Shown here: piece after piece, positions 95 to 62,014 of the stretch
Layout of the letters: each line of letters opens with the position of its first letter
How positions within the stretch are numbered: the first letter of the stretch is position 1
NCBI GenBank assembly: GCA_964611205.1
Contig: CAZSZB010000002.1
Location: 10,609-74,608 of the forward strand
Source: an uncultured Candidatus Saccharibacteria bacterium
Lineage (GTDB): Bacteria > Patescibacteriota > Minisyncoccia > Phycocordibacterales > UBA918
DNA: 64,000 nucleotides
Reading direction: 5' to 3'
Translations under genes and position numbers: made by a program
The notes under the pieces: model-generated
Told to the model about the DNA's origin: nothing
The model's input: the letters and a program-made list of their open reading frames with translations, nothing else
Database searches by the model: none

Positions 95-1180
95 TTATTT
101 TTCTTTTCTCTTAAACTCAAAAGACTTGAAGAACCTCATAATAAACCATATTACCACAAACAAACCTACGAATATTGTAGCAACTATTTTCCAAGGAATG
201 ACCCAGAATGAAATCTGAGCTTCATCAATAATGTCATCATAGCCACGATTTAGATTCAAAGTAGCAGTATAACGACCGAATAATAGATCACGGTTCCAAC
301 TGATTTCTCGAGAACGCAATGATTGAGGTAAAGCAAACCAGGGTTTAAGTTCTACAAAACCAACATCTTCTCCTAGGACATTGGATATTCTTATTTCACC
401 ATAAGGATTAAGGTGTAAAGACCCTTCATTTTCATAAAGTATTTGAAACTCTATAGGACCTTTTTCGTACCACTTTTTATTATTCAAAGTAGAAAAGCTC
501 TTAAGCTCTCCTGCTATTTCTGTTTCTCCAGGCACCGTAACAAAAATAAGTGAACCGATACGACTAATTATAGCTGATCTTGGAGCAGCACCGTCTTCAG
601 AACCGGGATCGGCCTCGGTTGTAACTGTTTTAACTAAAACACTACCGTATTTTCCACCTGCTTCTGCGTCCTTAGGAACAGATACAGTTACCGGGATTGT
701 TACTCGAAGATTCGGTTCTAAATCGAATTTATATTTAGGAACAGAAATATAGTCCTTTAAAGTGTAGGGGCCTCGGTCGTCACCCAAAAGCACAACTGAT
801 TCATTGATATCTGTTGAACCACTAATATCCTCGATATCAATTTCAAAACGTTTGGTTTCTGCCATCCGGTTGGAAATGTTTATATAAACAGTTTTCGTTT
901 GACCTGGTAGTAATTGTAATTCTAACTTCCCTGGACCAAGAACAAAATCATCAAAAACTTTATCGCCAAGTAGAGCTTCTGTTGGGTAAGGATTACTGAA
1001 ATCAGGCAAAGGGTCTGTCTCTACCTCATCCGAAGAAGTAGCATTATTTTGAATTATTTCATTCGTTTCTGAAGCAAAATTGTTTTCCTGTGCAGCTGTT
1101 TGAGACACAGCTATTACCAAAAGAAATAGTAAGGCACTAAGGGAAAGGAGACTTGTATATCTTAGCCAAGAAGCGGTCAT
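95..1180 (-). CDS. hypothetical exported protein with an N-terminal signal peptide and a C-terminal transmembrane anchor
   Basis: 361 aa ORF. Hydrophobic N-terminus (LLSLSALLFLLVIAV..AAQ). C-terminal hydrophobic helix followed by a basic tail (FKRKEK). No recognisable catalytic motif. Confidence 0.45.
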   Translation of the reverse strand: MTASWLRYTSLLSLSALLFLLVIAVSQTAAQENNFASETNEIIQNNATSSDEVETDPLPDFSNPYPTEALLGDKVFDDFVLGPGKLELQLLPGQTKTVYINISNRMAETKRFEIDIEDISGSTDINESVVLLGDDRGPYTLKDYISVPKYKFDLEPNLRVTIPVTVSVPKDAEAGGKYGSVLVKTVTTEADPGSEDGAAPRSAIISRIGSLIFVTVPGETEIAGELKSFSTLNNKKWYEKGPIEFQILYENEGSLHLNPYGEIRISNVLGEDVGFVELKPWFALPQSLRSREISWNRDLLFGRYTATLNLNRGYDDIIDEAQISFWVIPWKIVATIFVGLFVVIWFIMRFFKSFEFKRKEK

Positions 1181-1201: not shown

Positions 1202-1909
1202 CTAATTATCTAAAGCAGTCAATGTGGCGGTAGCAACATAAGTACCACTTGGAACTGCTGGAGTTGGTCCATTAGGAATAGTGATCCTGAATTTAACAGT
1301 AGAAGTAGAGCCTGATGCCGGAGTTGGGGCTCCTGAGTAGATTAGAGTGGTGGCCGCGTTTTCATCAGTAGAAGAAGCACCGCGCCAACAGTTATCGACT
1401 GTGAAGGTCGTGTTATTACTTGTCCCACAGTTACCACCAGTATGAGTAAACACACTGGAGACTTCACTGGTATTAGAAGCATTTATTGTAAAACCAAATT
1501 GAGCATTAGGTAAAGAAGTGTCATACCCAGTCGGATAAGAAGACATATCGGAAGAGTAAACATAGTTAGCAATAGTATCGTTACTACCATTTCTCTTCAT
1601 AGCAGTAGTGCTACTAAACTTAATCGTCATATTGTAACCACTAACGTTGTTACTGGTCACACGAACAGATGTTTCCCCCAGAGTAGTACCGCCGGTAAGA
1701 CCGTTTAGAGTACCACTCATGGTGACATCGCTAGCAGTAGCCGCAAAAGCAATAGCTGAGGAAACAGTTTGCGTAACAGTAAATTCATCTGTTACCGCTT
1801 GCCCTACTATTGGTTCAGAAACCAAATAAATAGCGAATATAATGGATAGTATCAGTACAGCTGCAAGCAATGAATCGTAGCTACTTCTAATTAAATTTTT
1901 GATGATCAT
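1202..1909 (-). CDS. Ser/Thr-rich putative cell-surface protein with an N-terminal TM/signal helix (pilin- or WxL-like architecture)
   Basis: 235 aa ORF. N-terminal hydrophobic segment, then a long Thr/Ser/Asn/Gly-rich, beta-strand-like sequence. Sits 22 nt from the upstream exported protein, so likely co-transcribed. Confidence 0.4.
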   Translation of the reverse strand: MIIKNLIRSSYDSLLAAVLILSIIFAIYLVSEPIVGQAVTDEFTVTQTVSSAIAFAATASDVTMSGTLNGLTGGTTLGETSVRVTSNNVSGYNMTIKFSSTTAMKRNGSNDTIANYVYSSDMSSYPTGYDTSLPNAQFGFTINASNTSEVSSVFTHTGGNCGTSNNTTFTVDNCWRGASSTDENAATTLIYSGAPTPASGSTSTVKFRITIPNGPTPAVPSGTYVATATLTALDN

Positions 1910-2001
1910 AAAGAATAAATATTATAAATAATAGTAACTTTTTTTACCAACGGTATCTACACAATACTGCCAAAAGGTGGGGATATTTATATCTTAATAA
2001 T

Positions 2002-2253
2002 TTAAATTAAAATAGTTGCTTGATTATTACTTATTTCTAGTGTTCCTGAATCAATTTGGTACTCTTCTTTTTGTTCTTTGTTAATTTTGATTGTCAGAGT
2101 CCCAGTCTTCAGAGGAGAAATTAATGGCTCGTGATCAGCCATTATTTCCATTTCACCAGCTGCTCCCGGAACATGTACGCTCAAAACTTCACCTTCAAAA
2201 ACAGGAGCATCAACTCTAGAAACTATTAATTTAAGTAATCTTTGTTCGGCCAT
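2002..2253 (-). CDS. atpC: ATP synthase F1 epsilon subunit, short form
   Basis: 83 aa ORF immediately downstream of atpD with a 2 nt gap. Size and position match the N-terminal beta-sandwich of epsilon. Lacks the C-terminal helical hairpin. Confidence 0.7.
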   Translation of the reverse strand: MAEQRLLKLIVSRVDAPVFEGEVLSVHVPGAAGEMEIMADHEPLISPLKTGTLTIKINKEQKEEYQIDSGTLEISNNQATILI

Positions 2254-3853: not shown

Positions 3854-4759
3854 CTATTTCATTGCTTCTACCCCCGCGGTTATTTCTGACACCTCAGCTG
3901 TAATGGCCGTCTGGCGAGCTTTGTTATATTTAATTGTTAAAGCTTTGATTACTTCCTTGCTTTTATCGGTAGCATTCTTCATTGCCACCATTCGAGCAGA
4001 ATGCTCAGACGCTTTGCTCTCCAAAAGAGCATGATAAATAATAATTTCAATCAAGCGTGGTATCAGGGATTTTAAAACCTCTTCTGCTGAAGGTTCGATG
4101 GTATAGGACACAATAGCTGTAGCCGGCTCTATTTCTTCACTAAATTTTCCTTTTTTAGGACGGATACCGCGTAAAATATAATGAATTTCTGCTGGATCAA
4201 GCGGTAGAATAGTACGCTTAGTCGGCAACTGTTCGAAAGTAGAAAGAAAATTCTGATAAATAATTTCAATTTCTTTGTAAGCTCCTGTATTAAATCTGTC
4301 TAAAATAACTTTAGACATTTCATAAATATCTGCCATCGTAACAGCATCCGAAACATTATTATGCTCTTCAATGATTTCAAGCTTTTCGCGACGTGCAAAA
4401 TCCCCGGCTTTGCGACCAATACAAATGACTTCTATTTCTGCTCGGTACTTGTGAACTACCTCCTCGGCTTTTTTAATAACAGCACTGTTAACACTACCAG
4501 CCAAACCCTTATCACTAGTGACAATAACCAAAATCCTTTTACCTTCTTCTTTCTTGGTAGTGTAATTGCTGTGTCTTAAGTCTGGTGAGCTAGCTAGACG
4601 AGAAAGAATTCGCATAGCAGCGTGGACATACGGCCGACCAGCGAAAGCTCGTTCTTGAGCTTTACGCATCTTAACCGCTGAAACAGACTCCATGGCTTTG
4701 GTTACCTGTCCGGTTTTCTTGGTAGAAATTATTTTGTTTTTTACTTGTTTAAGTGCCAT
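3854..4759 (-). CDS. atpG: ATP synthase F1 gamma subunit
   Basis: 301 aa. Lies between atpA and atpD. The N-terminal MALKQVKNKI..TKAMESV motif is typical of gamma. Confidence 0.9.
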   Translation of the reverse strand: MALKQVKNKIISTKKTGQVTKAMESVSAVKMRKAQERAFAGRPYVHAAMRILSRLASSPDLRHSNYTTKKEEGKRILVIVTSDKGLAGSVNSAVIKKAEEVVHKYRAEIEVICIGRKAGDFARREKLEIIEEHNNVSDAVTMADIYEMSKVILDRFNTGAYKEIEIIYQNFLSTFEQLPTKRTILPLDPAEIHYILRGIRPKKGKFSEEIEPATAIVSYTIEPSAEEVLKSLIPRLIEIIIYHALLESKASEHSARMVAMKNATDKSKEVIKALTIKYNKARQTAITAEVSEITAGVEAMK

Positions 4760-4779
4760 AAAATAATGCGAGGATCTTC

Positions 4780-6351
4780 TTAAGCAACAGGTTTGTAGTT
4801 TTGAGGGTGGGCTTCTTTATAGTCTTTAATAGCTTTATCGAGCTTTTCTATTATTTCGTCAGTAAGTTCACGACCTGTTTCAATGTCGGTTAAAATCTCC
4901 TTTCGATCACGTTCTACAAACTCGATAAAAGTCTGTTCAATCTTTCGAGTATTTTCTACTGGGGCTCCAAAGAAGATACCTTGGTTAGCGGCGTAAATAG
5001 CAATCACTTGTTTTTGGAATGGAACCGGTTGGTTTTGGCCCTGTTTCAACAACTCAACATATTTACGACCTGATTCGATACGATTTTTTGTATCTTCATC
5101 AAGATCTGAAGCAAATTGCATAAAAGCCTCTAACTCTCTGAATTGTGCCAATTCAAGACGAATCTTACCTGACACTTTCTTCATCGCTTTAGTTTGAGCG
5201 GAAGAACCTACTCGAGATACAGAAATACCGACATCCAGAGCTGGGCGGATACCTTTATTAAACAAATCAGTATCTAGGAAAATCTGACCATCAGTGATTG
5301 AAATCACGTTAGTTGGAATATAAGCAGACACGTCACCTTCTTGGGTCTCAATAATAGGCAGGGCAGTAATCGATCCACTACCGAGTTCAGCTGAGAGTTT
5401 AGCAGAACGCTCTAATAATCGAGAGTGGAGATAAAAGATATCACCTGGATAAGCTTCGCGTCCCGGCGGACGACGTAGAAGTAGAGACATTTGTCGATAG
5501 GCATTAGCGTGTTTAGATAAGTCATCCAGAATAATCAACACGTCTTTACCTTGCTGCATAAAATATTCACCAATAGCCATGCCTGCAAATGGTGCCAAGA
5601 AAAGAAGTGGTGACGCTTCTGAAGCTGAAGTAGCTACTATTGTTGTGTATTCCATTGCTCCGGCTTCTTCTAACTTAGCCATGATGCTTACAGTTTTTGA
5701 ACGTTTCTGCCCAATAGCTACATATATACAAATTGGTCTTTTTTCTGCTGGCTCGTGTTTCTGGTTGATGATTGTGTCAACAGCAATGGTTGTTTTACCA
5801 GTCTGTCGGTCACCAATAATCAACTCTCTTTGTCCACGACCGATAGGAATCATAGAGTCAATAGCTTTGATACCAGTGTGGATAGGTTCATTAACACTTG
5901 AACGATCCATCACCCCATAAGCAACTCGCTCGATTGGCATGTCTGCTTCCCCTTTTACTGCACCCTTACCGTCAATTGGCTCACCAAGTGGACTGACCAC
6001 TCGTCCAACTATTTCTGGACCAACTGGGATAGAAAGTAGTTTTTCAGTTCGCATTACCCGCATACCCTCTTTTACCCGAGTAGATTCGCCTAGCACTACT
6101 ACTTTAACCACGTCTTCTTCCAAGTTGAGGATCAGACCATAGAGAGCATCCTTAGCAGCAATCGTTTCAGCCAGTGATTTGCCGTCACTATCAGAAAACA
6201 CCACCATTTCCATCATCTGGGCTTCCGAAAGACCGTCAATTTCAGCAATTCCGTCACCAACTGCTGTAACCACACCGATTTCTTTCGGTGCCGATGACAG
6301 GTCGATGTTTTCTATTTCTTGCTTTATTTTATCTATAATGACTGAGCTCAT
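4780..6351 (-). CDS. atpA: ATP synthase F1 alpha subunit
   Basis: 523 aa. Walker A GDRQTGKT. Conserved alpha-subunit blocks. Confidence 0.95.
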   Translation of the reverse strand: MSSVIIDKIKQEIENIDLSSAPKEIGVVTAVGDGIAEIDGLSEAQMMEMVVFSDSDGKSLAETIAAKDALYGLILNLEEDVVKVVVLGESTRVKEGMRVMRTEKLLSIPVGPEIVGRVVSPLGEPIDGKGAVKGEADMPIERVAYGVMDRSSVNEPIHTGIKAIDSMIPIGRGQRELIIGDRQTGKTTIAVDTIINQKHEPAEKRPICIYVAIGQKRSKTVSIMAKLEEAGAMEYTTIVATSASEASPLLFLAPFAGMAIGEYFMQQGKDVLIILDDLSKHANAYRQMSLLLRRPPGREAYPGDIFYLHSRLLERSAKLSAELGSGSITALPIIETQEGDVSAYIPTNVISITDGQIFLDTDLFNKGIRPALDVGISVSRVGSSAQTKAMKKVSGKIRLELAQFRELEAFMQFASDLDEDTKNRIESGRKYVELLKQGQNQPVPFQKQVIAIYAANQGIFFGAPVENTRKIEQTFIEFVERDRKEILTDIETGRELTDEIIEKLDKAIKDYKEAHPQNYKPVA

Positions 6352-6384
6352 AATGAATGATTTATTTTAGTGGATAATTTGTTG

Positions 6385-6765
6385 CTAGGTGGTTAATGCC
6401 CGGTAAAGGTTGACCAACTTTGTTTTATAACTTTTGTCTAATATTTTATTATTAGCTTCTACTAGCCATCCCCCAACTATGGTGGGGTCGATAACAACTT
6501 CTGGTTCACCAGTAGCTGCTAATTCTGCTAAAGCTTCTTTTATTTTAGCTAATTCTTTCTCGTAGACATTGTCGTTTGGAACTACTACTGTAATTTTATT
6601 TGTGCCAGTAGCTTCTAATACCTTCAAAACACCACGCAGAATCGGAGCATAAAGTCTCTGGTGACCTCTTTCTTTAAGAGTGCTTTGTAGTCCTTTTATA
6701 ATTTTATCTAGGCTATCGCCTGTTTTAATTTTTTCAAGAACTGCTGTGATGTAGTTGTCTTTCAT
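6385..6765 (-). CDS. atpH: ATP synthase F1 delta subunit (OSCP)
   Basis: 126 aa ORF between atpF and atpA. Assignment rests on position in the operon and size. Confidence 0.65.
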   Translation of the reverse strand: MKDNYITAVLEKIKTGDSLDKIIKGLQSTLKERGHQRLYAPILRGVLKVLEATGTNKITVVVPNDNVYEKELAKIKEALAELAATGEPEVVIDPTIVGGWLVEANNKILDKSYKTKLVNLYRALTT

Positions 6766-6783
6766 AAGAATGAATACGTAAAA

Positions 6784-7233
6784 CTAAGCTTGCTTATCGG
6801 CTAAGATTTTCTCTGCAGTAAGAACCGCTAGTTTAGCTATTTCAGCCTCACTATCTTTGCGCGCTTGAGTTTGTAGATTGATTGCTTTTTCTTCTGCTTG
6901 AGAAATTATATTTGATGCTTTCTCATCTGCCGCTGCTGTTATAGCTGCAGTTTTTTCATCAGCAAATGTTTTGGCTCTTTTAGCAATAGCTTCGGCTTCT
7001 TTATGAGCAGTTGCTAAAACTGTTTGTTTTTCTCCCTCAGCTTCAGATAAAGCACGGGCCGCTGTCTCTGCGTCTTTAATACCTTGCCGTACTTTTTCTT
7101 CTCTTTCAGCCAAAAGCTTAAGAACTGGTTTGTACAAAAAATAAGAAAGAACTGCCACTAAAATAGTGAAGTTAATGATTTGTACGACAATCAATTTTAC
7201 ATCGATGCCGAAAGCTTGAATAAGTTGTTCCAT
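6784..7233 (-). CDS. atpF: ATP synthase Fo subunit b
   Basis: 149 aa. Single N-terminal TM helix, then a long Ala/Glu/Lys-rich coiled coil. Confidence 0.75.
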   Translation of the reverse strand: MEQLIQAFGIDVKLIVVQIINFTILVAVLSYFLYKPVLKLLAEREEKVRQGIKDAETAARALSEAEGEKQTVLATAHKEAEAIAKRAKTFADEKTAAITAAADEKASNIISQAEEKAINLQTQARKDSEAEIAKLAVLTAEKILADKQA

Positions 7234-7349
7234 AATTTTATCTAGATAACTAGGTTTTAGTTACTGTGTGACTTCCCTGCTTTAATCTAAAAATCTACAT
7301 AATCGAGATTTTCAGACAGTTGTTTAGCTCGAGAATTTGCTTAATTTGT

Positions 7350-7613
7350 TTAAGCAAATTTGATGATAAACGATACAACTAAAGCGAAAATTGCCAAAGC
7401 TTCAACGAATACGATACCGAGGATCATAGTACTTTGAATCTTTGAAGCTGCTTCTGGATTACGGCCGATAGCATCAAGGGCTCGTGATACTAAGATACCA
7501 ATACCGATTCCTGGACCAAGCACACCGATACCGGCGGCTAAAGCCATAGCGATAGATTTGATTGCGTCAGCGCTCATTTCTGAAGCCTGAAGAGCTAATT
7601 CTATTTCTGTCAT
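7350..7613 (-). CDS. atpE: ATP synthase Fo subunit c
   Basis: 87 aa. Two TM helices with a Gly-rich first helix and a conserved carboxylate (E) in the second (..FVEALAIFALV..). Confidence 0.85.
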   Translation of the reverse strand: MTEIELALQASEMSADAIKSIAMALAAGIGVLGPGIGIGILVSRALDAIGRNPEAASKIQSTMILGIVFVEALAIFALVVSFIIKFA

Positions 7614-7676
7614 AATTTAATTCTTTATTAATAATTATTAAGAGTCGACATGCCAATGTAAACTCTATAGTAATTA

Positions 7677-8495
7677 CTAATGGGGCTCAGCTACTGCTAA
7701 CTTTATAAATATTAAAGTCAGGAAAGCAAAGACTCCAGCCTGAATCATCCCGACAAAAGTTTCATAAAGCAGGATAGGTACCGGCAAAATGAGCGGGACA
7801 AAAAACATCGCCACCAAGAGAAGGGTCTTACCAGCAAAAATATTTCCGAATAAACGGAATGAGAAAGACACAATCCGACCGATTTCACTGATAAGCTCGA
7901 TTAGCCCAACTACGAAGCTCATCGGTGACGAAAAGTTTATAAACTTACCGCCATATTTCCAGGCCCCTAAAGCTACTATACCGGCAAATTCTATCACAGC
8001 CATGGAAATAAAGGCGAAAGCAATAGGAATATTTAAGTCAGTAGCAGGAGGATACAAGAAAGGAATTAGATGACCATGTTCATTGAAATAGCCGATTGAA
8101 GTAACTCCGGGGAGAAGTCCTACCCAGTTCATAGTCAATAGAAAAATAAAGATGGTAATCAAAACTGGAAAGTATTTTTTGGCTAACTTCTCACTCTCTA
8201 GAGTTTCAACAACATAATTATATAGACCACCGATAGTTAGTTCTATTATCGACTGACTTTTACCAGGAATAGTCTTTAAAGATCGGTTCAACAAAAAAGC
8301 ACCTACAATAAGTAGCAACATGACCAACCAAGAAGTTAGTAGGGTTGAGGTGATTGGCATATTTCCAATATGACCTAACACGTACGGTGCTAAATGAACG
8401 GAAATTCCTTCGCCTCCCTCCTCCGCTGCTTGTGCAATATTAATGAATTGAAACATATACATTCCGAACAAACCAGAGGAAATGCTTTGTTCCAA
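7677..8495 (-). CDS. atpB: ATP synthase Fo subunit a
   Basis: 272 aa polytopic membrane protein. First gene of the atp cluster. Conserved Arg-containing motif (..FSFRLFGN..). Confidence 0.85.
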   Translation of the reverse strand: MEQSISSGLFGMYMFQFINIAQAAEEGGEGISVHLAPYVLGHIGNMPITSTLLTSWLVMLLLIVGAFLLNRSLKTIPGKSQSIIELTIGGLYNYVVETLESEKLAKKYFPVLITIFIFLLTMNWVGLLPGVTSIGYFNEHGHLIPFLYPPATDLNIPIAFAFISMAVIEFAGIVALGAWKYGGKFINFSSPMSFVVGLIELISEIGRIVSFSFRLFGNIFAGKTLLLVAMFFVPLILPVPILLYETFVGMIQAGVFAFLTLIFIKLAVAEPH

Positions 8496-8754
8496 AATAA
8501 TTCAGGACAATTGAAAATGTGAAATTCTCGTTCAATACGACGGTACCCTCAGAATGTTTGAGAGTCCGGTTATTCACAACTTTGGTCATCCAAAATTACT
8601 TCTAAAAACAAACCAGTTCAATCCAATTTGCGACTGCATATTATCATATTGAAGACGATTGTAAACTTTGACTCTGTTGAAAGAACCTAATCGAGACCTG
8701 GTCTCTAACTTAATTTCTTTGTAAAAGTAGCAAATGGGAGTTCTTAATTTATTT

Positions 8755-8985
8755 TGTGGACCAGACAGGATTCGGTCACTCTCGTGGATATTTTCTTCGT
8801 TCTATGAACTCAAAAATATCTCACTCCCTCGAATCTTACAGATTCTGTACAGGTTTCGCTCTAGCGAGCTGCAACCTTGTAATAAAATCTCCCAGACTTT
8901 ATTACACCATTCGTCGCGGTCCTCGGCTTAAGCCTGCGGACTCCGTCGCGACTCAGTTCGAATCCTGTCAAAGTCTCTCAAAAAC
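8755..8985 (-). repeat. long variant (A1) of the tRNA-linked hairpin element; ends in a third copy of the tRNA-Ala 3' end
   Basis: Read on the minus strand it has GACAGGATTCGAAC, which is the reverse complement of the tRNA-Ala T-arm 3' half. A long GC-rich hairpin follows. Then comes GTAATAAAGTC-TGGGAG-ATTTTATTAC, a hairpin with the family's TGGGAG loop. Then AGGTT..AACCT pairing and a TACAG-AAT-CTGTA hairpin. It ends ..CCGAATCCTGTCTGGTCCACA, which matches 20 nt of the tRNA-Ala 3' end. Confidence 0.5.
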
Positions 8986-9020
8986 AACAAAACCAAAGCA
9001 TTCGCTTTGGTTTTGGTTTT
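8975..9020 (-). terminator. terminator-like hairpin between elements A2 and A1
   Basis: Minus strand reads CCAAAGC-GAAT-GCTTTGG followed by TTTTGTTGTTTTTG. T-rich on both strands, so orientation is ambiguous. Confidence 0.4.
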
Positions 9021-9147
9021 TGTGGACCAGACAGGATTCGAAACATACTGTTTCAGTACAGGTTGTCAGTATTCTTAATGAATTAAGAATACTAGGCAAC
9101 CTCTTCGAATCCTGACGTAAAGCCTCCCAGGCTTTACTTCTGGTCCG
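9021..9147 (-). repeat. tRNA-linked hairpin element A2; candidate structured ncRNA or miniature insertion, built on the tRNA-Ala 3' end
   Basis: Minus strand parses as follows. CGGACCAG-AAG. Then GTAAAGCC-TGGGAG-GCTTTAC, the first hairpin. Then GTCAGGATTCGAAG-AGGTTGCC. Then a 12 bp hairpin AGTATTCTTAAT/TTAAGAATACT. Then GACAACCT, which pairs with AGGTTGCC. Then TACTG-AAA-CAGTA. Then GT-TTCGAATCCTGTCTGGTCCACA. The last 22 nt equal the tRNA-Ala 3' end. The first segments are its reverse complement, split by the YGGGAG hairpin. Confidence 0.6.
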
Positions 9148-9182
9148 AAATAAACAAACCGCAGACAAGCTGCGGTTTATTT
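9148..9182 (-). terminator. terminator-like hairpin directly downstream of tRNA-Ala
   Basis: CCGCAG-CTTGT-CTGCGG followed by TTTGTTTATTT on the minus strand. Confidence 0.5.
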
Positions 9183-9184
9183 TG

Positions 9185-9257
9185 TGGACCAGACAGGATT
9201 CGAACCCGCTGCCTCCTCAGTGCAAATGAGGCGCTCTACCAATTGAGCTACTGGCCC
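9185..9257 (-). tRNA. tRNA-Ala (anticodon UGC)
   Basis: 73 nt cloverleaf, GGGCCAGTAGCTCAATTGGTAGAGCGCCTCATTTGCACTGAGGAGGCAGCGGGTTCGAATCCTGTCTGGTCCA. G3:U70 alanine identity pair. Anticodon loop TTTGCAC. T-loop TTCGAAT. T-stem carries two G.U pairs. CCA is not encoded. Confidence 0.9.
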
Positions 9258-9372
9258 AAACGAGATAGTAAATATTCACTACTGATTACTGAGTCAGAAA
9301 GCTTCGCTTACTGCCCAACAAAATCTCGTAAGTGCCGCATATATTACTACACTCACAAGCAGAGTCAATCAG

Positions 9373-9897
9373 TTATTTCCAAGGCTGATCGCTAGAGTGA
9401 GATTGGAAATCATTTATCGTCAACAAATCATCATCAGACCAAGGGTTATCATTATAATTTAAAACAACCACTCCTTCAGTGTCTGGTAAAGAAACCAGGT
9501 GTGCAGTATCTTTTTCGATATCGTAAACAACCGGCACACAACCTTCGCTGGTCATAGATAGTAATTCACAGTAAAAAATAAATTTTTTACTTGGTGAAAC
9601 CTGAGCGTTTGTTATTTTATGATGAAAACCAACTCTTTCTATATCAGCATCCATAGATAGACTGTTTTTATTAGCACTAAGTATGCGTTCATTGTCACCT
9701 TGCTTTATAAACAAACCAACATCGTTTAGGATTAATTCCCAATCATTTTTTTCCTCCATTACTTTCCCAGTGCTGGCAATCTGCGGTACAGAATTAGGCT
9801 GATTCAGTGACTGATTAAAGGCTATAAAAGCAGTCGTAAAACCAATAATATAAGCTAAGATAATTAGTAGCGATCTCTCAAAACGAACACTTTTCAT
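9373..9897 (-). CDS. hypothetical membrane-anchored or secreted protein
   Basis: 174 aa ORF with an N-terminal hydrophobic helix. No recognisable domain. Confidence 0.4.
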   Translation of the reverse strand: MKSVRFERSLLIILAYIIGFTTAFIAFNQSLNQPNSVPQIASTGKVMEEKNDWELILNDVGLFIKQGDNERILSANKNSLSMDADIERVGFHHKITNAQVSPSKKFIFYCELLSMTSEGCVPVVYDIEKDTAHLVSLPDTEGVVVLNYNDNPWSDDDLLTINDFQSHSSDQPWK

Positions 9898-9957
9898 TAC
9901 TTGAATTATACCAGCTTTTATTTTGGCAATACTTATTTGTCACCAGCTCTTTTCTAC

Positions 9958-10926
9958 TTAAGGTCGAGCAGTCTTCACTAGATGATCTATCAGTTCATTG
10001 TAATTACTACCGATAGCATTAATTGATTTAGGGAAAAGAGACTCTTCCGTCAAACCTGGCAAGGTGTTAACTTCCAAGAAGTAAACTTCTCCATCGGAAA
10101 TGATAAAGTCTGATCTTGAATATTGGGAAAGATTTAGTTGCTTATGAACTTCTAAGGCAGCCTCAGCCAGTTTCTGTTTTTCTGTTTTAGAAAAGCGCCC
10201 AGGACAAATTTCTTCAGTACAACCAGAGTACTTTGCTTCATAAGAGAATAAGGGAGATTCATCAGGCGATATTATTTCTATGTCTGGTAATACATAATGT
10301 TTTTGGTCTCTAAACCCTTCTAATATACCCACCGTTGCTTCCTTGCCTTTAACAAATTCCTCCACCAAAACTTCGCCGTATTTATTAAGTAATTCTTCCA
10401 ACATTGTAGATAATTCCCCTGAATGATGAGCTATCAGAGTATCAACGGAAGAGCCGCCAGAAACAGGCTTAATTACATAATGGGGACCAAAAGCTTGCGT
10501 CAAACCAAAAACTGTTTTCTGTAAATTAGTTACGTCCTGTCTCAAAACACGGGCGTGTTTTGGCATTTTAATACCAGATTCTTTAAGATGTTCTTTAGTT
10601 ATGAATTTATTGATTGCGATAGCAGAGGCATACGGATCACTACCCGTGTATGGCAAATTTAATCTCTTGATCATTCTTTGTACGGTGCCATCCTCCCCGT
10701 AAGAGCCATGTAAAGCTATAAAAACAACATCAACATCAGATAAAATATTTTGTTGATCACGGCAGAGACCATCACAAAGCCATTCCCCATTTTTAGTAAT
10801 GGTTATATCTTTGGTTGAATAACCTAAATCGCGTAGGGCACGCAACACATTAGACCCAGTTTTTAAGGAAACTTCGTATTCGGCACTAGGTCCGCCACGC
10901 AAAACTGCAACCCGATTATATTTCAT
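9958..10926 (-). CDS. ddl: D-alanine--D-alanine ligase
   Basis: 322 aa. Conserved N-terminal block of the Ddl family (VAVLRGGPSAEYEVSL). ATP-grasp C-terminal half (..FLEVNTLPGLTE..). Confidence 0.9.
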   Translation of the reverse strand: MKYNRVAVLRGGPSAEYEVSLKTGSNVLRALRDLGYSTKDITITKNGEWLCDGLCRDQQNILSDVDVVFIALHGSYGEDGTVQRMIKRLNLPYTGSDPYASAIAINKFITKEHLKESGIKMPKHARVLRQDVTNLQKTVFGLTQAFGPHYVIKPVSGGSSVDTLIAHHSGELSTMLEELLNKYGEVLVEEFVKGKEATVGILEGFRDQKHYVLPDIEIISPDESPLFSYEAKYSGCTEEICPGRFSKTEKQKLAEAALEVHKQLNLSQYSRSDFIISDGEVYFLEVNTLPGLTEESLFPKSINAIGSNYNELIDHLVKTARP

Positions 10927-31607: not shown

Positions 31608-31705
31608 TTTTTAAATTATAACCTGTTTAAATCAACTAAACATATCATATCTACATTTCTTTAATAAAATCGCAATACAAGTTATGATAGTCTCGCACAA
31701 ATACT

Positions 31706-31867
31706 GAGAGATGGCTAAGTGGAGCAAAAGTGAAGTGTTTCACTTTTGCTCCGGTCTTCGAACGAAGTGAGAAGATTGGCCGTTGTGAGCGAATGAGAAC
31801 AGGCCAAAGGAGGAAACGTAGTCGAACGCCTAATGAAGAACAAGCGTTCTTACAAAAACAAGTATAT
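31706..31867 (+). repeat. tRNA-Ser 5'-end-initiated repeat unit C1
   Basis: Begins GAGAGATGGCTAAGTGG, a copy of the tRNA-Ser 5' end. A 14 bp hairpin follows (GGAGCAAAAGTGAA-GTGT-TTCACTTTTGCTCC). Then GGTCTTCGAAC. It shares GTTGTGAG and AGGAGGAAAC with unit C2. Ends in a small hairpin. Confidence 0.5.
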
Positions 31868-32029
31868 GGAGAGATGGCTGAGTGGATGAAAAGCAAACTG
31901 CTTTGCTTTTCATCCGGTTTGCGAACCTGAGAGCAAAAAGGTCGTTGTGAGTTTACGAGCAGACCTTAGGAGGAAACCGAATCGAATGCTTATAATACAA
32001 TAAAGCATTACGTAAAAAAACAAATATAC
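31868..32029 (+). repeat. tRNA-Ser 5'-end-initiated repeat unit C2
   Basis: Begins GGAGAGATGGCTGAGTGG. The 14 bp hairpin GGATGAAAAGCAAA-CTG-CTTTGCTTTTCATCC co-varies with the C1 stem. GGTTTGCGAACC, GTTGTGAG and AGGAGGAAAC motifs shared with C1. Confidence 0.5.
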
Positions 32030-32123
32030 GGAGAGATGGCTGAGTGGATGTAATTGTCTGGGAGACAATTACATCCGACCAGAGGGAGGTGGACGAACTT
32101 GTTCGACCCGAAGCCATCTCTTC
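32030..32123 (+). repeat. tRNA-Ser 5'-end-initiated element C3 with a TGGGAG-loop hairpin and closing inverted repeat
   Basis: GGAGAGATGGCT-GAGT. Then the hairpin GGATGTAATTGTC-TGGGAG-ACAATTACATCC. Then ..GGACGAAC-TTG-TTCGACC... Then AGCCATCTCTTC. The ends are an 11-12 nt inverted repeat of the tRNA-Ser 5' end. The loop is the same YGGGAG as in elements A2, B and C4. Confidence 0.55.
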
Positions 32124-32136
32124 AAAAAGAAATAAC

Positions 32137-32223: not shown

Positions 32224-32230
32224 CGAATAC

Positions 32231-32262
32231 AAAATAGCACCCTTTTTGGGGTGCTTATTTTG
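32231..32262 (+). terminator. terminator-like hairpin immediately after tRNA-Ser
   Basis: AAAATAGCACCC-TTTTT-GGGGTGCT followed by TATTTTGTT. Confidence 0.6.
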
Positions 32263-32265
32263 TTC

Positions 32266-32397
32266 GCGGAGAGAGGAGTAACTGTCTGGGAGACAGTTAC
32301 GTGGGATTCGAAAAGCTTTTGAGCTATTTTCAAGCTGGCGTAGAAAATAGCCAAAAGGTATACAGTCCATGTAATGGACGAATCCCCCTCTCTCCGC
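32266..32397 (+). repeat. tRNA-linked hairpin element C4, built on the tRNA-Ser 3' end
   Basis: GCGGAGAGAGG-AG. Then GTAACTGTC-TGGGAG-ACAGTTAC. Then GTGGGATTCGAAAAG-CTTTTGAGC. Then hairpin TATTTTC..GAAAATA. Then GCCAAAAGG. Then hairpin GTCCAT-GTA-ATGGAC. Ends GAATCCCCCTCTCTCCGC, copying the tRNA-Ser 3' end. Same architecture as A2 and B. Confidence 0.6.
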
Positions 32398-32474
32398 TAA
32401 ATTAAAAACCCCCATATTGCCAATTAATCTAGCGGGGGTACTATAGTGAGTAATACAAAATAATAAATTTTATT

Positions 32475-35953: not shown

Positions 35954-36139
35954 ATTTATTGATATACCAACTGACCAGCACTTCTTTCAGAAGCTGTTCA
36001 GGTTGTCGCTATTCTTTACAGAACAGCTGGCAACCTTCTACAACAGTCCCACTCTTTATCACGATAATGAGCATAGATTTCTTTTCCTGGTTTATTACCA
36101 AAACATCAACATCTTTATCTATTATTTAATTATAGGTCA

Positions 36140-61140: not shown

Positions 61141-61740
61141 ATTTTAATAATTATTTAATAAAATTTGAAATAATTGTTAGTTTGATTCCCTATCATTATT
61201 GTCTTGAGTAGGAATATTTAATTCAACATTGAGACCAGCATCGTTTTCTGGCTGATTATTCTTAAAGAACCAAACTATTCCGAACGCTATAAGACCAAGA
61301 ATCAAAATTAGTATTACAGTGTTCATGCTTGAATTGTTCATAATAATTTATTATCTATTAACTATATATTTAATAATAACACTAACCAAACCACCATACT
61401 TAATATAGACACCCCAATAAGACTAGCAATTATTAGATAATTACCTGTTTCTTTATGAAGAAACTTCAAGAATAAATTAGTTACTGATTTCTTAATCAGC
61501 TCTATATTACGAGTTATAGTTATAATTTGTATCATAGTGAGAGAATGACGCTTTAAACACTATTTTCAAGTGTTTTGAATCTGATAATAGAGTGGCTTAA
61601 TCCTTCTTATACCTACCTTACACCTGTCATTTATTTACACAAGCTTTCCGTATATTGCAGGTAAAAATTAACTCTTGAATTAACTCCGGAGTTAATTCAG
61701 TAAATATCAATGTCACGAACACATCTAGAAAGATATTACT

Positions 61741-61760
61741 AAAAACACTTCCGTGTTTGC
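61741..61760 (-). terminator. terminator-like hairpin downstream of element B
   Basis: Minus strand reads AAACAC-GGAA-GTGTTT followed by TTAG. Confidence 0.35.
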
Positions 61761-61780
61761 GTCGTACCGATTGCTGCCAG

Positions 61781-61903
61781 ACTAGGACTCGAAACTTACA
61801 GTTTCAGTACCCGTTGTCATTATCTTTCATTCTTCAAGATAATAGGCAACGGCTTCGAATCCTAACGTAACAGTCTCCCGGACTGTTACTAGCTTGGCAG
61901 CTC
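61781..61903 (-). repeat. tRNA-linked hairpin element B, built on the tRNA-Gln 3' end
   Basis: Minus strand parses as follows. GAGCTGCCAAGCTAG. Then GTAACAGTC-CGGGAG-ACTGTTAC. Then GTTAGGATTCGAAG-CCGTTGCC. Then hairpin TATTATCTT..AAGATAATG. Then ACAACGG. Then GTACTGAAACTGTAAGT. Then TTCGAGTCCTAGTCTGGCAGC. The last ~21 nt are identical to the tRNA-Gln 3' end and the first segment is its reverse complement. Confidence 0.6.
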
Positions 61904-61910
61904 TAAAGCA

Positions 61911-61935
61911 AAACCACCCTCCTCGGGTGGTTTGT
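61911..61935 (-). terminator. terminator-like hairpin directly downstream of tRNA-Gln
   Basis: ACCACCC-GAGGA-GGGTGGT followed by TTTTGCTTT on the minus strand. Confidence 0.5.
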
Positions 61936-61943
61936 GCTAAGAG

Positions 61944-62014
61944 CTGCCAGACTAGGACTCGAACCTAGATAACATGGACCAGAACCATGTGTCCTACCAT
62001 TAGACGATCTGGCA
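61944..62014 (-). tRNA. tRNA-Gln (anticodon CUG)
   Basis: 71 nt, TGCCAGATCGTCTAATGGTAGGACACATGGTTCTGGTCCATGTTATCTAGGTTCGAGTCCTAGTCTGGCAG. U1-A72 first pair as in bacterial tRNA-Gln. Anticodon loop TTCTGGT. T-arm CTAGG-TTCGAGT-CCTAG. CCA not encoded. Confidence 0.85.

Follow-up and report, generated by a model that had tools for sequence, protein, structure and literature searches.

At the 3' end of a tRNA-Ala(UGC) gene in a 64,000-nt stretch of contig CAZSZB010000002.1, from an uncultured Candidatus Saccharibacteria bacterium (the window, meaning that whole stretch), three direct repeats consist of the end of the gene itself and two copies of it, which bound two stacked, folded, non-coding units, here termed A2 and A1. 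Our leading reading, to which we give about even weight, is that A2 and A1 are non-autonomous non-coding insertion cassettes stacked at the tRNA-Ala 3' end and belonging to a Patescibacteria-wide family. Directly observed were a common architecture, arms that match each tRNA, a fold conserved on the tRNA strand, alleles that differ by the precise presence or absence of a unit, and occupancy that varies with lineage. An earlier note on this DNA had drawn attention to three exact 20-nt copies of the tRNA-Ala 3' end. We found TGTGGACCAGACAGGATTCG at the same three plus-strand positions (8755, 9021 and 9183, with start-to-start spacings of 162 and 266 nt) and no further match at up to 3 mismatches; 0 matches were expected from 100 shuffles, which excludes chance.

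The copy at plus-strand position 9183 sits within the tRNA-Ala gene and, read on the tRNA strand, is CGAATCCTGTCTGGTCCACA, comprising the 3' part of the T-loop, the 3' strand of the T-stem, the 3' strand of the acceptor, the discriminator and CA. The identity between tRNA-Ala and A2 exceeds the 20-mer, reaching 25 nt (TTCGAATCCTGTCTGGTCCACAAAA, 9180-9204 versus 9018-9042), and the end of tRNA-Ala plus its trailer is identical over 27 nt to the arm of A1 at 8748-8774. On the tRNA strand, the gene is followed by a hairpin (9147-9179), A2 (9021-9146), a second hairpin (8988-9015), A1 (8755-8969) and the leader of the atp operon. The gene and the A2 unit have the following features.

9341..9368, minus strand: promoter-like site for tRNA-Ala, TTGACT-16-TAATAT (consensus scan)
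9184..9257, minus strand: tRNA-Ala(UGC) gene (ARAGORN; Rfam tRNA, 68.5 bits)
9180-9204, minus strand: repeat copy 1 (X), the last 25 nt of tRNA-Ala, from the T-loop to C74, plus AAAA (sequence)
9147..9179, minus strand: terminator-like hairpin L1, AAATAAACCGCAGC-TTGT-CTGCGGTTTGTTTATTT, opening the A2 unit (sequence)
9021..9146, minus strand: element A2, type A (fold; covariance model R1, 115 bits, E = 6e-27; motif matches)
9140-9146, minus strand: 5' arm of A2, GGACCAG, a perfect complement of the acceptor 3' strand
9117-9137, minus strand: hairpin P2 of A2 with a TGGGAG loop, followed by GT (motif)
9104-9114, minus strand: T-arm complement of A2, CAGGATTCGAA, complementary to the 3' half of the T-arm (sequence)
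9043-9103, minus strand: core hairpins P3ext/P4/P5 of A2, a long P3ext/P4 hairpin and a short P5 with a UGUA-type loop
9018-9042, minus strand: 3' arm of A2, which is repeat copy 2, identical to the tRNA-Ala end

The A2 unit, 162 nt in all, thus contains a terminator-like hairpin, the tRNA 3' end in reverse complement, a core of several hairpins and a fresh copy of the tRNA 3' end; the predicted fold of A2 has an energy of -62.9 kcal/mol (z = -10.8 versus shuffles). The 5' arm of A2 has A at the position of G3 in the tRNA. Ala-type 5' arms in general read GGACC, with A opposite U70, versus GGGCC (G3) in the 5' strand of the tRNA, so they are complements of X and not copies of the 5' strand. 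The terminator scan found the L1 stem at 9156-9178, on the plus strand only. A stretch resembling TTGACT..TA(A/G)TAT also lies 5' of tRNA-Ala in the relatives L057, L060, L063 and L067.

On sequence comparison, A1 is a composite: a type-B cassette that would have received a type-A mini-core. Its parts are listed here.

8755..9020, minus strand: whole A1 unit, 266 nt, consisting of L2, A1 and repeat copy 3 (delimited by the same-species absence allele)
8988..9015, minus strand: terminator-like hairpin L2, 12-bp stem plus T run, opening the A1 unit (terminator scan)
8956..8969, minus strand: T-arm complement of A1, GACAGGATTCGAAC, pairing with CGAATCCTGTC of repeat copy 3
8908..8955, minus strand: hairpin B1 of A1, type-B scaffold (fold)
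8818..8913, minus strand: type-A mini-core nested within A1 (R1, 31 bits, E = 4e-6)
8879-8905, 8851-8878 and 8831-8850, minus strand: P2, short P4 and P5 of the mini-core (R1 alignment)
8775..8830, minus strand: hairpin B2 of A1, type-B scaffold, GAGATATTTTTGAG..GAACGAAGAAAATATCC (fold)
8748..8774, minus strand: 3' arm of A1, which is repeat copy 3, 27 nt, identical to the tRNA-Ala end plus trailer

B2 is the part of A1 most clearly similar to type-B elements, and B1 shows only modest similarity to those behind tRNA-Trp, tRNA-Tyr and tRNA-Leu (L003, L005, L007). The mini-core carries no T-arm complement between P2 and P4. The predicted fold of A1 has an energy of -87.2 kcal/mol (z = -7.6 versus shuffles), and in L038 (700-790) the P2 loop of another element harbours a homologous mini-core. 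The earlier note had described A1 as a rearranged variant, possibly a second insertion, and the finding of a second scaffold type with an inserted type-A mini-core agrees with this. The motifs it listed are all present (the TGGGAG-loop hairpin, at 8879-8905, the AGGTT..AACCT pairing and the GTACAGAATCTGTA hairpin), as is the exact reverse complement of the 3' half of the T-arm, which is GACAGGATTCGAAC; the full acceptor complement is indeed absent, as it had stated for the 5' acceptor-complement.

The repeats mark the boundaries of precise insertions or deletions. In two independent same-species contigs from other samples, with an identical AtpB (L049, SRR30309628; L053, ERZ926210), the tRNA-Ala-atpB spacer is about 266 nt shorter and exactly the A1 unit, 8755-9020, is absent; the intergenic region measures 910 nt in the window contig versus 644 nt in L049, and the printed stretch of L053 enters atpB by 6 nt. 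The junction of the A1-less allele lies inside the repeat (...GTTTCGAATCCTGTCTGGTCCACAAAA|TAAATTAAG), the A2 repeat continuing directly into ACAAAATAAATTAAG, and because its k-mers are unique to that allele it is not an assembler collapse. At tRNA-Gln, the same-species contigs (L078-L086, window region 61700-62014) show four or more alleles, with identical tRNA and upstream flank: they include the 170-nt unit of the window, a precise empty site (L081) and two different sequences (L080, L085) whose inserts diverge immediately after the ...GGCAGC of tRNA-Gln. One of these two alternative inserts holds a degenerate copy of the tRNA end. One identical cassette was also found after three different left contexts (L028, L016, L030). 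Most same-species short-read contigs retrieved at the Ala, Ser and Gln loci start or stop inside the tRNA or the units; we did not accept such breaks as evidence of polymorphism, since palindromes alone can break de Bruijn graphs, and alleles were called from junction-spanning contigs only.

Occupancy also differs among syntenic relatives, taken as those that keep the order small ORF (open reading frame), tRNA-Ala, atpB. L057 (AtpB 79% identical) has one unit without P2, in which a block of repeat, linker and T-arm complement stands on both sides of the core. L060-L062 (76%) and L063 (74%) have no unit and a plain terminator only, and L067 (77%) has an inverted tRNA-Ala, a partial tRNA-Ala pseudogene and a weak element. 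The earlier note had held that a three-copy arrangement shared by related genomes would argue for an ancient fixed locus. These relatives do not share it, and their missing or different units, together with the A1 and tRNA-Gln absence alleles, show that the locus is not of that kind. In L067, at 7540-8075 on the minus strand, tRNA-Ala is followed by an inverted P2-type hairpin (loop TCCCAG) and a partial tRNA-Ala duplicate that covers the D-loop through the T-arm. At its empty tRNA-Ala site, L060 has a small TGGGAG-loop hairpin (GGATTGCTGGGAGCAAAC, 9935-9960) after its native terminator, and the same empty-site flank also follows a chimeric element in L045.

All three tRNAs of the window (Ala, Ser and Gln) are trailed by a unit whose arms match their own 3' end. 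The tRNA-Ser and tRNA-Gln elements, of about 130 nt, share the YGGGAG-loop P2, the GT-..GGATTCGAA stretch and the core, and a different kind of unit lies on the 5' side of tRNA-Ser.

32225..32398, plus strand: sister unit 3' of tRNA-Ser(GGA), a long hairpin continuing from the tRNA 3' end, then an element (sequence; fold z = -8.1)
32267-32398, plus strand: type-A element 3' of tRNA-Ser, with Ser-matched arms (R1, 127.5 bits)
61772..61942, minus strand: sister unit 3' of tRNA-Gln(CUG), a terminator, then an element (sequence; absent in same-species L081)
61772-61900, minus strand: type-A element 3' of tRNA-Gln, with Gln-matched arms (R1, 108 bits)
31704..32124, plus strand: three mirror-image 5'-type units upstream of tRNA-Ser (sequence; folds; R1, 29 bits)

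Because the 5' arm of the tRNA-Ser element extends the terminator stem, the tRNA end, trailer and arm form one long hairpin. Each of the 5'-type units opens with a copy of the tRNA 5' end (GGAGAGATGGCTGAGTGG) and closes in an A/T-rich -10-like stretch; in the last of them (32030-32124), which includes a TGGGAG hairpin, the 3' arm is the complement of the tRNA-Ser 5' end and finishes 13 nt before the gene. Upstream of tRNA-Ser, 5'-type units also occur in L038 (400-560, homologous) and L088 (10913-11030). Their direct copies of the tRNA 5' end span the acceptor and D-arm, and their conserved core is GGTCGTTGTGAG..CGAGCAGACC..AGGAGGAAACC..TCGAA, the A/T-rich -10-like end lying just before the next copy.

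The family extends well beyond this genome. Scanning species-representative genomes with the pattern GGGAGN{3,5}TTACGTN{1,3}GGATTCGAA returned 12 loci, of which 10 are in metagenome-assembled genomes (MAGs) of Patescibacteria (Paceibacteria, Saccharibacteria and Parcubacteria, the groups being those of the MAG titles); the two in Chloroflexota/Dehalococcoidia MAGs match in non-element sequence and were treated as chance. The same scan of Joint Genome Institute (JGI) metagenomes gave 35 loci, about 24 of them true elements, and altogether about 40 more units were found outside the window, in Patescibacteria MAGs and metagenomes. The genes on the contig that holds the window point to a Patescibacterium, and homologues of its AtpB include a Kaiserbacteria protein with 67% identity. 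The layout recurs behind tRNA-Tyr, Ala, Ser, His and Asn, frequently as tandem arrays of 2-5 units (5 in L024 and at least 3 in L011), and type B is a second core type, found between arms of the same kind behind tRNA-Trp, tRNA-Leu and tRNA-Tyr. The 3' arm is identical to the final 14 nt of the upstream tRNA in 11 of the 17 distinct pairs, at least 13 positions matching in 13 of the 17, and the 5' arm pairs with the tRNA end over up to 14 bp, continuing the terminator stem. An automated count of 5'-arm complementarity was discarded, because its register did not agree with the 3' ends called by ARAGORN. Modules (P4 types, P5 types and arms) are reshuffled among copies.

The fold is conserved as well. 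In an RNAalifold analysis of 23 elements, 25 of the 33 predicted pairs show compensatory changes. With 39 elements aligned to R1, 96.6% of cells are paired, versus 73% in shuffled and 35-47% with slid partners, and 27 of the 33 pairs change on both sides; for these 39 elements the alignment was fitted to R1 itself. A manual tally of the 23-element alignment gave 15 G:U pairs versus 4 A:C mismatches, and the T-arm complement retains GGATTCGAA opposite TTCGAGTCC in tRNA-Gln and L057. The excess of G:U over A:C and this retention indicate a selected fold on the tRNA strand, as RNA or single-stranded DNA. The units are not tRNAs or tRNA pseudogenes with a cloverleaf, as ARAGORN and Rfam call only the three true tRNAs of the window, and the T-loop sequence within the elements is paired in a long stem. 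In Rfam 15, only tRNA passes the gathering threshold anywhere in the window, with no ribozyme, tmRNA or known small RNA, and at E <= 10 the region 8400-9400 gives weak chance matches only, apart from the tRNA. Hammerhead, twister and box C/D readings of the core were rejected, the consensus boxes being absent and no Rfam match being found. A full-text search of the literature found no description of these elements, the nearest report being of group I introns found within Patescibacteria tRNA genes (PMC13011429). The family, widespread among Patescibacteria tRNA ends, is thus apparently undescribed.

We propose that a cassette of this family comprises, on the tRNA strand, a terminator-like hairpin, X' (the reverse complement of the tRNA 3' end, usually split by P2), the multi-hairpin core and X (the copy of the tRNA 3' end). 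After a 3'-type insertion, the tRNA would keep an intact 3' end and gain the terminator of the cassette; after a 5'-type insertion, it would keep an intact 5' end, the cassette closing in an A/T-rich -10-like stretch. As the terminal X would recreate the target, further cassettes could stack, which would produce the three repeats here and the arrays elsewhere. Precise gain and loss at X would explain the empty sites and the multi-allelic loci. The cassettes may move as units, through a trans-acting enzyme or by recombination through X; possible routes are a recombinase acting in trans, single-strand transposition of the HUH type, or plain recombination through the repeat after DNA uptake. X' could mask the duplicated tRNA end in read-through RNA and so let the real tRNA fold correctly. 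Alternatively, it could be the sequence by which the element recognizes both its target and its own end X.

Several points weigh against the cassette reading. It gives no account of how both arms come to match a new tRNA, and the alleles could come from repeat-mediated deletion and ordinary homologous exchange between strains, with no dedicated transposition. The strong conservation of the core, including its tandem-GA motifs, could mean a cellular RNA function and not selfishness. The gene table within +/-10 kb lists no recombinase, transposase or reverse transcriptase, and none, Y1_Tnp included, turned up among 29 further window ORFs run against Pfam, in line with the earlier observation that no integrase lies nearby. 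Four pattern scans of viral contigs yielded one true element (L088), on a contig resembling a bacterial chromosome with an integrated island. We saw no cassette in circular or free form, and the copies in this genome (the Ala, Gln and Ser cores) have diverged from one another, giving no sign of a recent burst.

Both units were compared by blastn with annotated phages and plasmids and gave no match; 20 other loci in viral contigs, from two of the scans, have no match to R1; and a tRNA-Ser-end pattern found no second copy in L088, its 70 tRNA-Ser 3'-end loci in viral contigs not having been inspected. Some enzymes do occur near relatives of the units. In L088, an island (4576-10469) with two large serine recombinases, ParB and a DNA methylase adjoins the tRNA-Ser array, and its edge (10425-10469) carries a tRNA-end-like half-site and its inverted complement, forming an 18-9-18 palindrome. 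L013 has a large-serine-recombinase homologue (4939-6623) between 140-nt inverted repeats that are 99% complementary, the first of which begins in the last 6 nt of tRNA-Leu(GAG); this segment could be invertible or resemble an insertion sequence (IS). A further such homologue occurs in L006. We did not adopt a large serine recombinase as the mobilizer and kept it as a lead only, because none was found among the window genes and ORFs scanned and long repeats are not required by this class of enzyme. In L024, a 119-aa ORF without a Pfam match (1759-2118, minus strand) lies between cassettes of the five-unit array, and the adjacent ORF at 106-828 (plus strand) is IS30-like, as judged by eye from an HYEGD motif, and is likewise a lead only.

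Three other explanations have to be weighed against insertion cassettes. The units might be structured small RNA genes serving the cell, for instance a tRNA-linked RNA that RNase P and 3' processing, acting at the tRNA-like closing stem, would free from read-through transcripts, in which case the repeat would be needed as a tRNA-identical 3' end and the alleles would be repeat-mediated deletions only. Such a role would suit the strong covariation, the invariant loop and junction motifs (UAC.G, UGUAA, YGGGAG and tandem-GA apical motifs), the constant co-orientation with the tRNA, the preference for G:U over A:C on the tRNA strand, and a closing stem that resembles an acceptor plus T minihelix, followed by a discriminator. 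Processing, however, needs only a generic stem, yet the arms copy the neighbouring tRNA. Occupancy is also patchy, close relatives and even same-species strains lacking units; the same site is held by different cassettes at tRNA-Gln; arrays include decayed, chimeric and nested copies; a terminator-like hairpin precedes each unit, leaving no space for a promoter of its own; and no Rfam family corresponds. We give this explanation a low but real probability.

We give the same low but real probability to the view that there is no dedicated mobility at all and that a hypervariable islet behind tRNAs is swapped between strains by homologous recombination after DNA uptake, its palindromes and repeats arising locally, by template switching at terminator hairpins and duplication, and its modules being homogenized by gene conversion. 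The multi-allelic tRNA-Gln locus with identical flanks, the modules shuffled between copies and the lack of a recombinase in the genes and ORFs searched are all in keeping with it, and the perfect complementarity of the 5' arm, which extends the terminator stem, is what template-switch correction of quasi-palindromes would give. What tells against it is the ordered layout (hairpin, X', P2, T-arm complement, core, X), shared by units after no fewer than eight kinds of tRNA (Ala, Ser, Gln, Tyr, His, Asn, Trp and Leu) across several groups of Patescibacteria, which independent local accidents would not reproduce; one identical cassette in three left contexts and mini-cores nested within other elements do not fit it either. 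Far less probable still is that the units are scars of large integrase-bearing elements (prophages or integrative and conjugative elements), later deleted to leave attL/attR and short remnants in the manner of cis-mobilizable elements (CIMEs). The repeats are indeed tandem and direct, copy the 3' segment of the tRNA and start in or next to the T-loop, and the L088 island and the L013 recombinase homologue abut tRNA-Ser and tRNA-Leu, respectively. Against scars stand the uniform unit sizes of 120-270 nt with no gene fragments, a core conserved and covarying across several Patescibacteria groups, the presence in the units of the repeat complement, which an att scar does not need, and the absence of any DNA match in phage or plasmid collections. 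Of the att-like integration proposed in the earlier note, the part that stood is that the repeats bound a precise insertion or deletion; the units are not plain att scars, because they carry X' and a conserved covarying folded core and belong to a large family behind many tRNAs.

Read as insertion cassettes, the units resemble several known systems in part. Classic att repeats are said to span the T-loop to the tRNA 3' end, as Williams reportedly described in 2002 in Nucleic Acids Res. Here, direct repeats identical to the tRNA were found (25 and 27 nt; 11 of 17 pairs exact over 14 nt), with precise filled and empty alleles whose junction lies in the repeat (A1 and the tRNA-Gln units); the identity starts at T54-C56 in the window units and only at the 3' strand of the T-stem in the CGAAATTCC subfamily. 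The units, of 162 and 266 nt, are non-coding and contain neither an encoded integrase nor a kilobase remnant of one. Integrative elements in tRNA genes, their integrase-less derivatives (CIMEs) and tandem accretion have been reviewed (PMC5704250). Our units share with them the direct repeats of the tRNA 3' segment, the intact tRNA, the tandem stacking, the precise filled and empty alleles and the lack of an integrase in the units. In contrast to CIMEs, they are 120-270 nt and not kilobases long, are gene-free, contain a folded core that is conserved and covaries, bear the repeat's reverse complement, exist in a mirror-image version at the tRNA 5' end and have no known cognate integrase. We rate the cassettes as an integrase-less variation on the theme of att-flanked insertion.

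Like MITEs (miniature transposable elements with inverted repeats), REP/BIME, Correia/NEMIS, BOX and RUP repeats, the units are short, non-coding, non-autonomous, hairpin-rich, modular, mosaic, intergenic and co-transcribed with neighbouring genes. Unlike them, they have locus-specific arms that copy or complement the adjacent tRNA end, and they are placed strictly at tRNA ends in one orientation. The arms are inverted but their outer 12-16 nt vary with each tRNA, so there are no family-wide terminal inverted repeats; the sole flanking repeat is the 20-27 nt tRNA end and not a short target-site duplication; and no autonomous IS with the same ends was seen, the L024 IS30-like ORF and the serine recombinases of L088, L013 and L006 being leads only. 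With IS200/IS605 and the PATE/REP derivatives (HUH Y1), the likeness would lie in insertion beside a specific sequence without duplication, subterminal hairpins, strand specificity, mobilization in trans and the recognition of cleavage sites by an internal guide that base-pairs with them in the same strand. The guide-like segment, however, is 14-20 nt here versus 4 nt, a single segment might pair with the flank as well as with the end of the element, and no Y1 transposase was found in the scanned ORFs of the 64-kb window. All alleles diverge right after the tRNA end, with hairpins present, and cleavage points are not placeable within the repeat. Arrays of integron cassettes with their attC sites, integrase-less clusters (CALINs) among them, likewise have palindrome-separated units, structure kept over sequence, folded single-strand sites and no nearby integrase; in our units, by contrast, the palindromes are built from tRNA ends, the content is mostly non-coding, and no IntI-like gene was seen in the gene table or the window ORFs scanned. 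As with the bridge RNAs of IS110, a structured non-coding RNA made from the element might base-pair with the target as well as with the element's end and so allow a programmable site choice, but we saw no recombinase of the IS110 family, Rfam gave no match, and one long stem takes the place of two internal loops.

We also raise, tentatively and with distinctly less confidence than insertion as such, the possibility that the cassettes constitute a novel class of self-targeting mobile elements in which X', as folded single-stranded DNA or RNA, would be a programmable guide that pairs with both the target and the terminal copy of the cassette itself. A host or trans-encoded enzyme would then cut and join at the termini of tRNA genes, at either end, without an element-encoded protein. 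Arms that match the adjacent tRNA imply recognition by base pairing and not a fixed protein site, and X' as the recognition sequence is the only simple route we see to matched arms, many tRNAs and both gene ends without a protein for each target.

If the cassettes are mobile, they would be the smallest known elements homing to tRNA genes, and they would mend the gene with a new 3' end and a terminator, or with a new 5' end and a promoter-like stretch. If recognition by base pairing holds, they would be of interest for programmable insertion. They form a large unannotated class of structured sequence in the Patescibacteria, whose tiny genomes are expected to put intergenic bases under pressure, and they may confuse prophage and island callers that rely on att sites.

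The earlier suggestion that A1 might influence atp transcription was not supported. A promoter-like site for the operon lies downstream of all the cassettes.

8638..8665, minus strand: promoter-like site for the atp operon, TTTACA-16-TAATAT, the -10 extended by a preceding TG (consensus scan)

The sequence of this site is identical in the A1-less strain, where the atp leader is the same but for one base difference. Nothing indicates control of atp by the cassettes; read-through is possible.

One further copy of the core stands apart from any tRNA.

35965..36067, minus strand: solo mini-core (P4/P5, degenerate P2) without arms or an adjoining tRNA (R1, 30 bits, E = 7e-6)

It is intergenic, with an HtpX-like gene (recognized by eye only) on one side and an adenine-glycosylase gene (Pfam Adenine_glyco) on the other.

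In related Patescibacteria loci, ARAGORN repeatedly called a tRNA-Ser with the anticodon ACT (loop TTACTAA, with an unusual A34), usually after a 5'-type unit: L016 110-197 and 2597-2684, L018 477-564, L030 11754-11843, L038 564-653, L042 1803-1890, L048 2139-2226 and L088 10531-10618. In L008, at about 4850-5000, a tRNA-like 3' end (..GGTCGCAGGTTCGAATCCTGCCCGGGGAGCA) has no ARAGORN call and is probably that of an intron-containing tRNA-Asn (compare PMC13011429); the element that follows it has a 5' arm matching that end and a 3' arm from another tRNA. A short GC-rich repeat (..CCACCACGCGCTCCGCGCG..) is found next to cassette arrays in L008 (about 5200-5310), L038 (1-110) and L043, and P2-like hairpins stand inverted before tRNA-Ala(GGC) in L033, L035 and L047.

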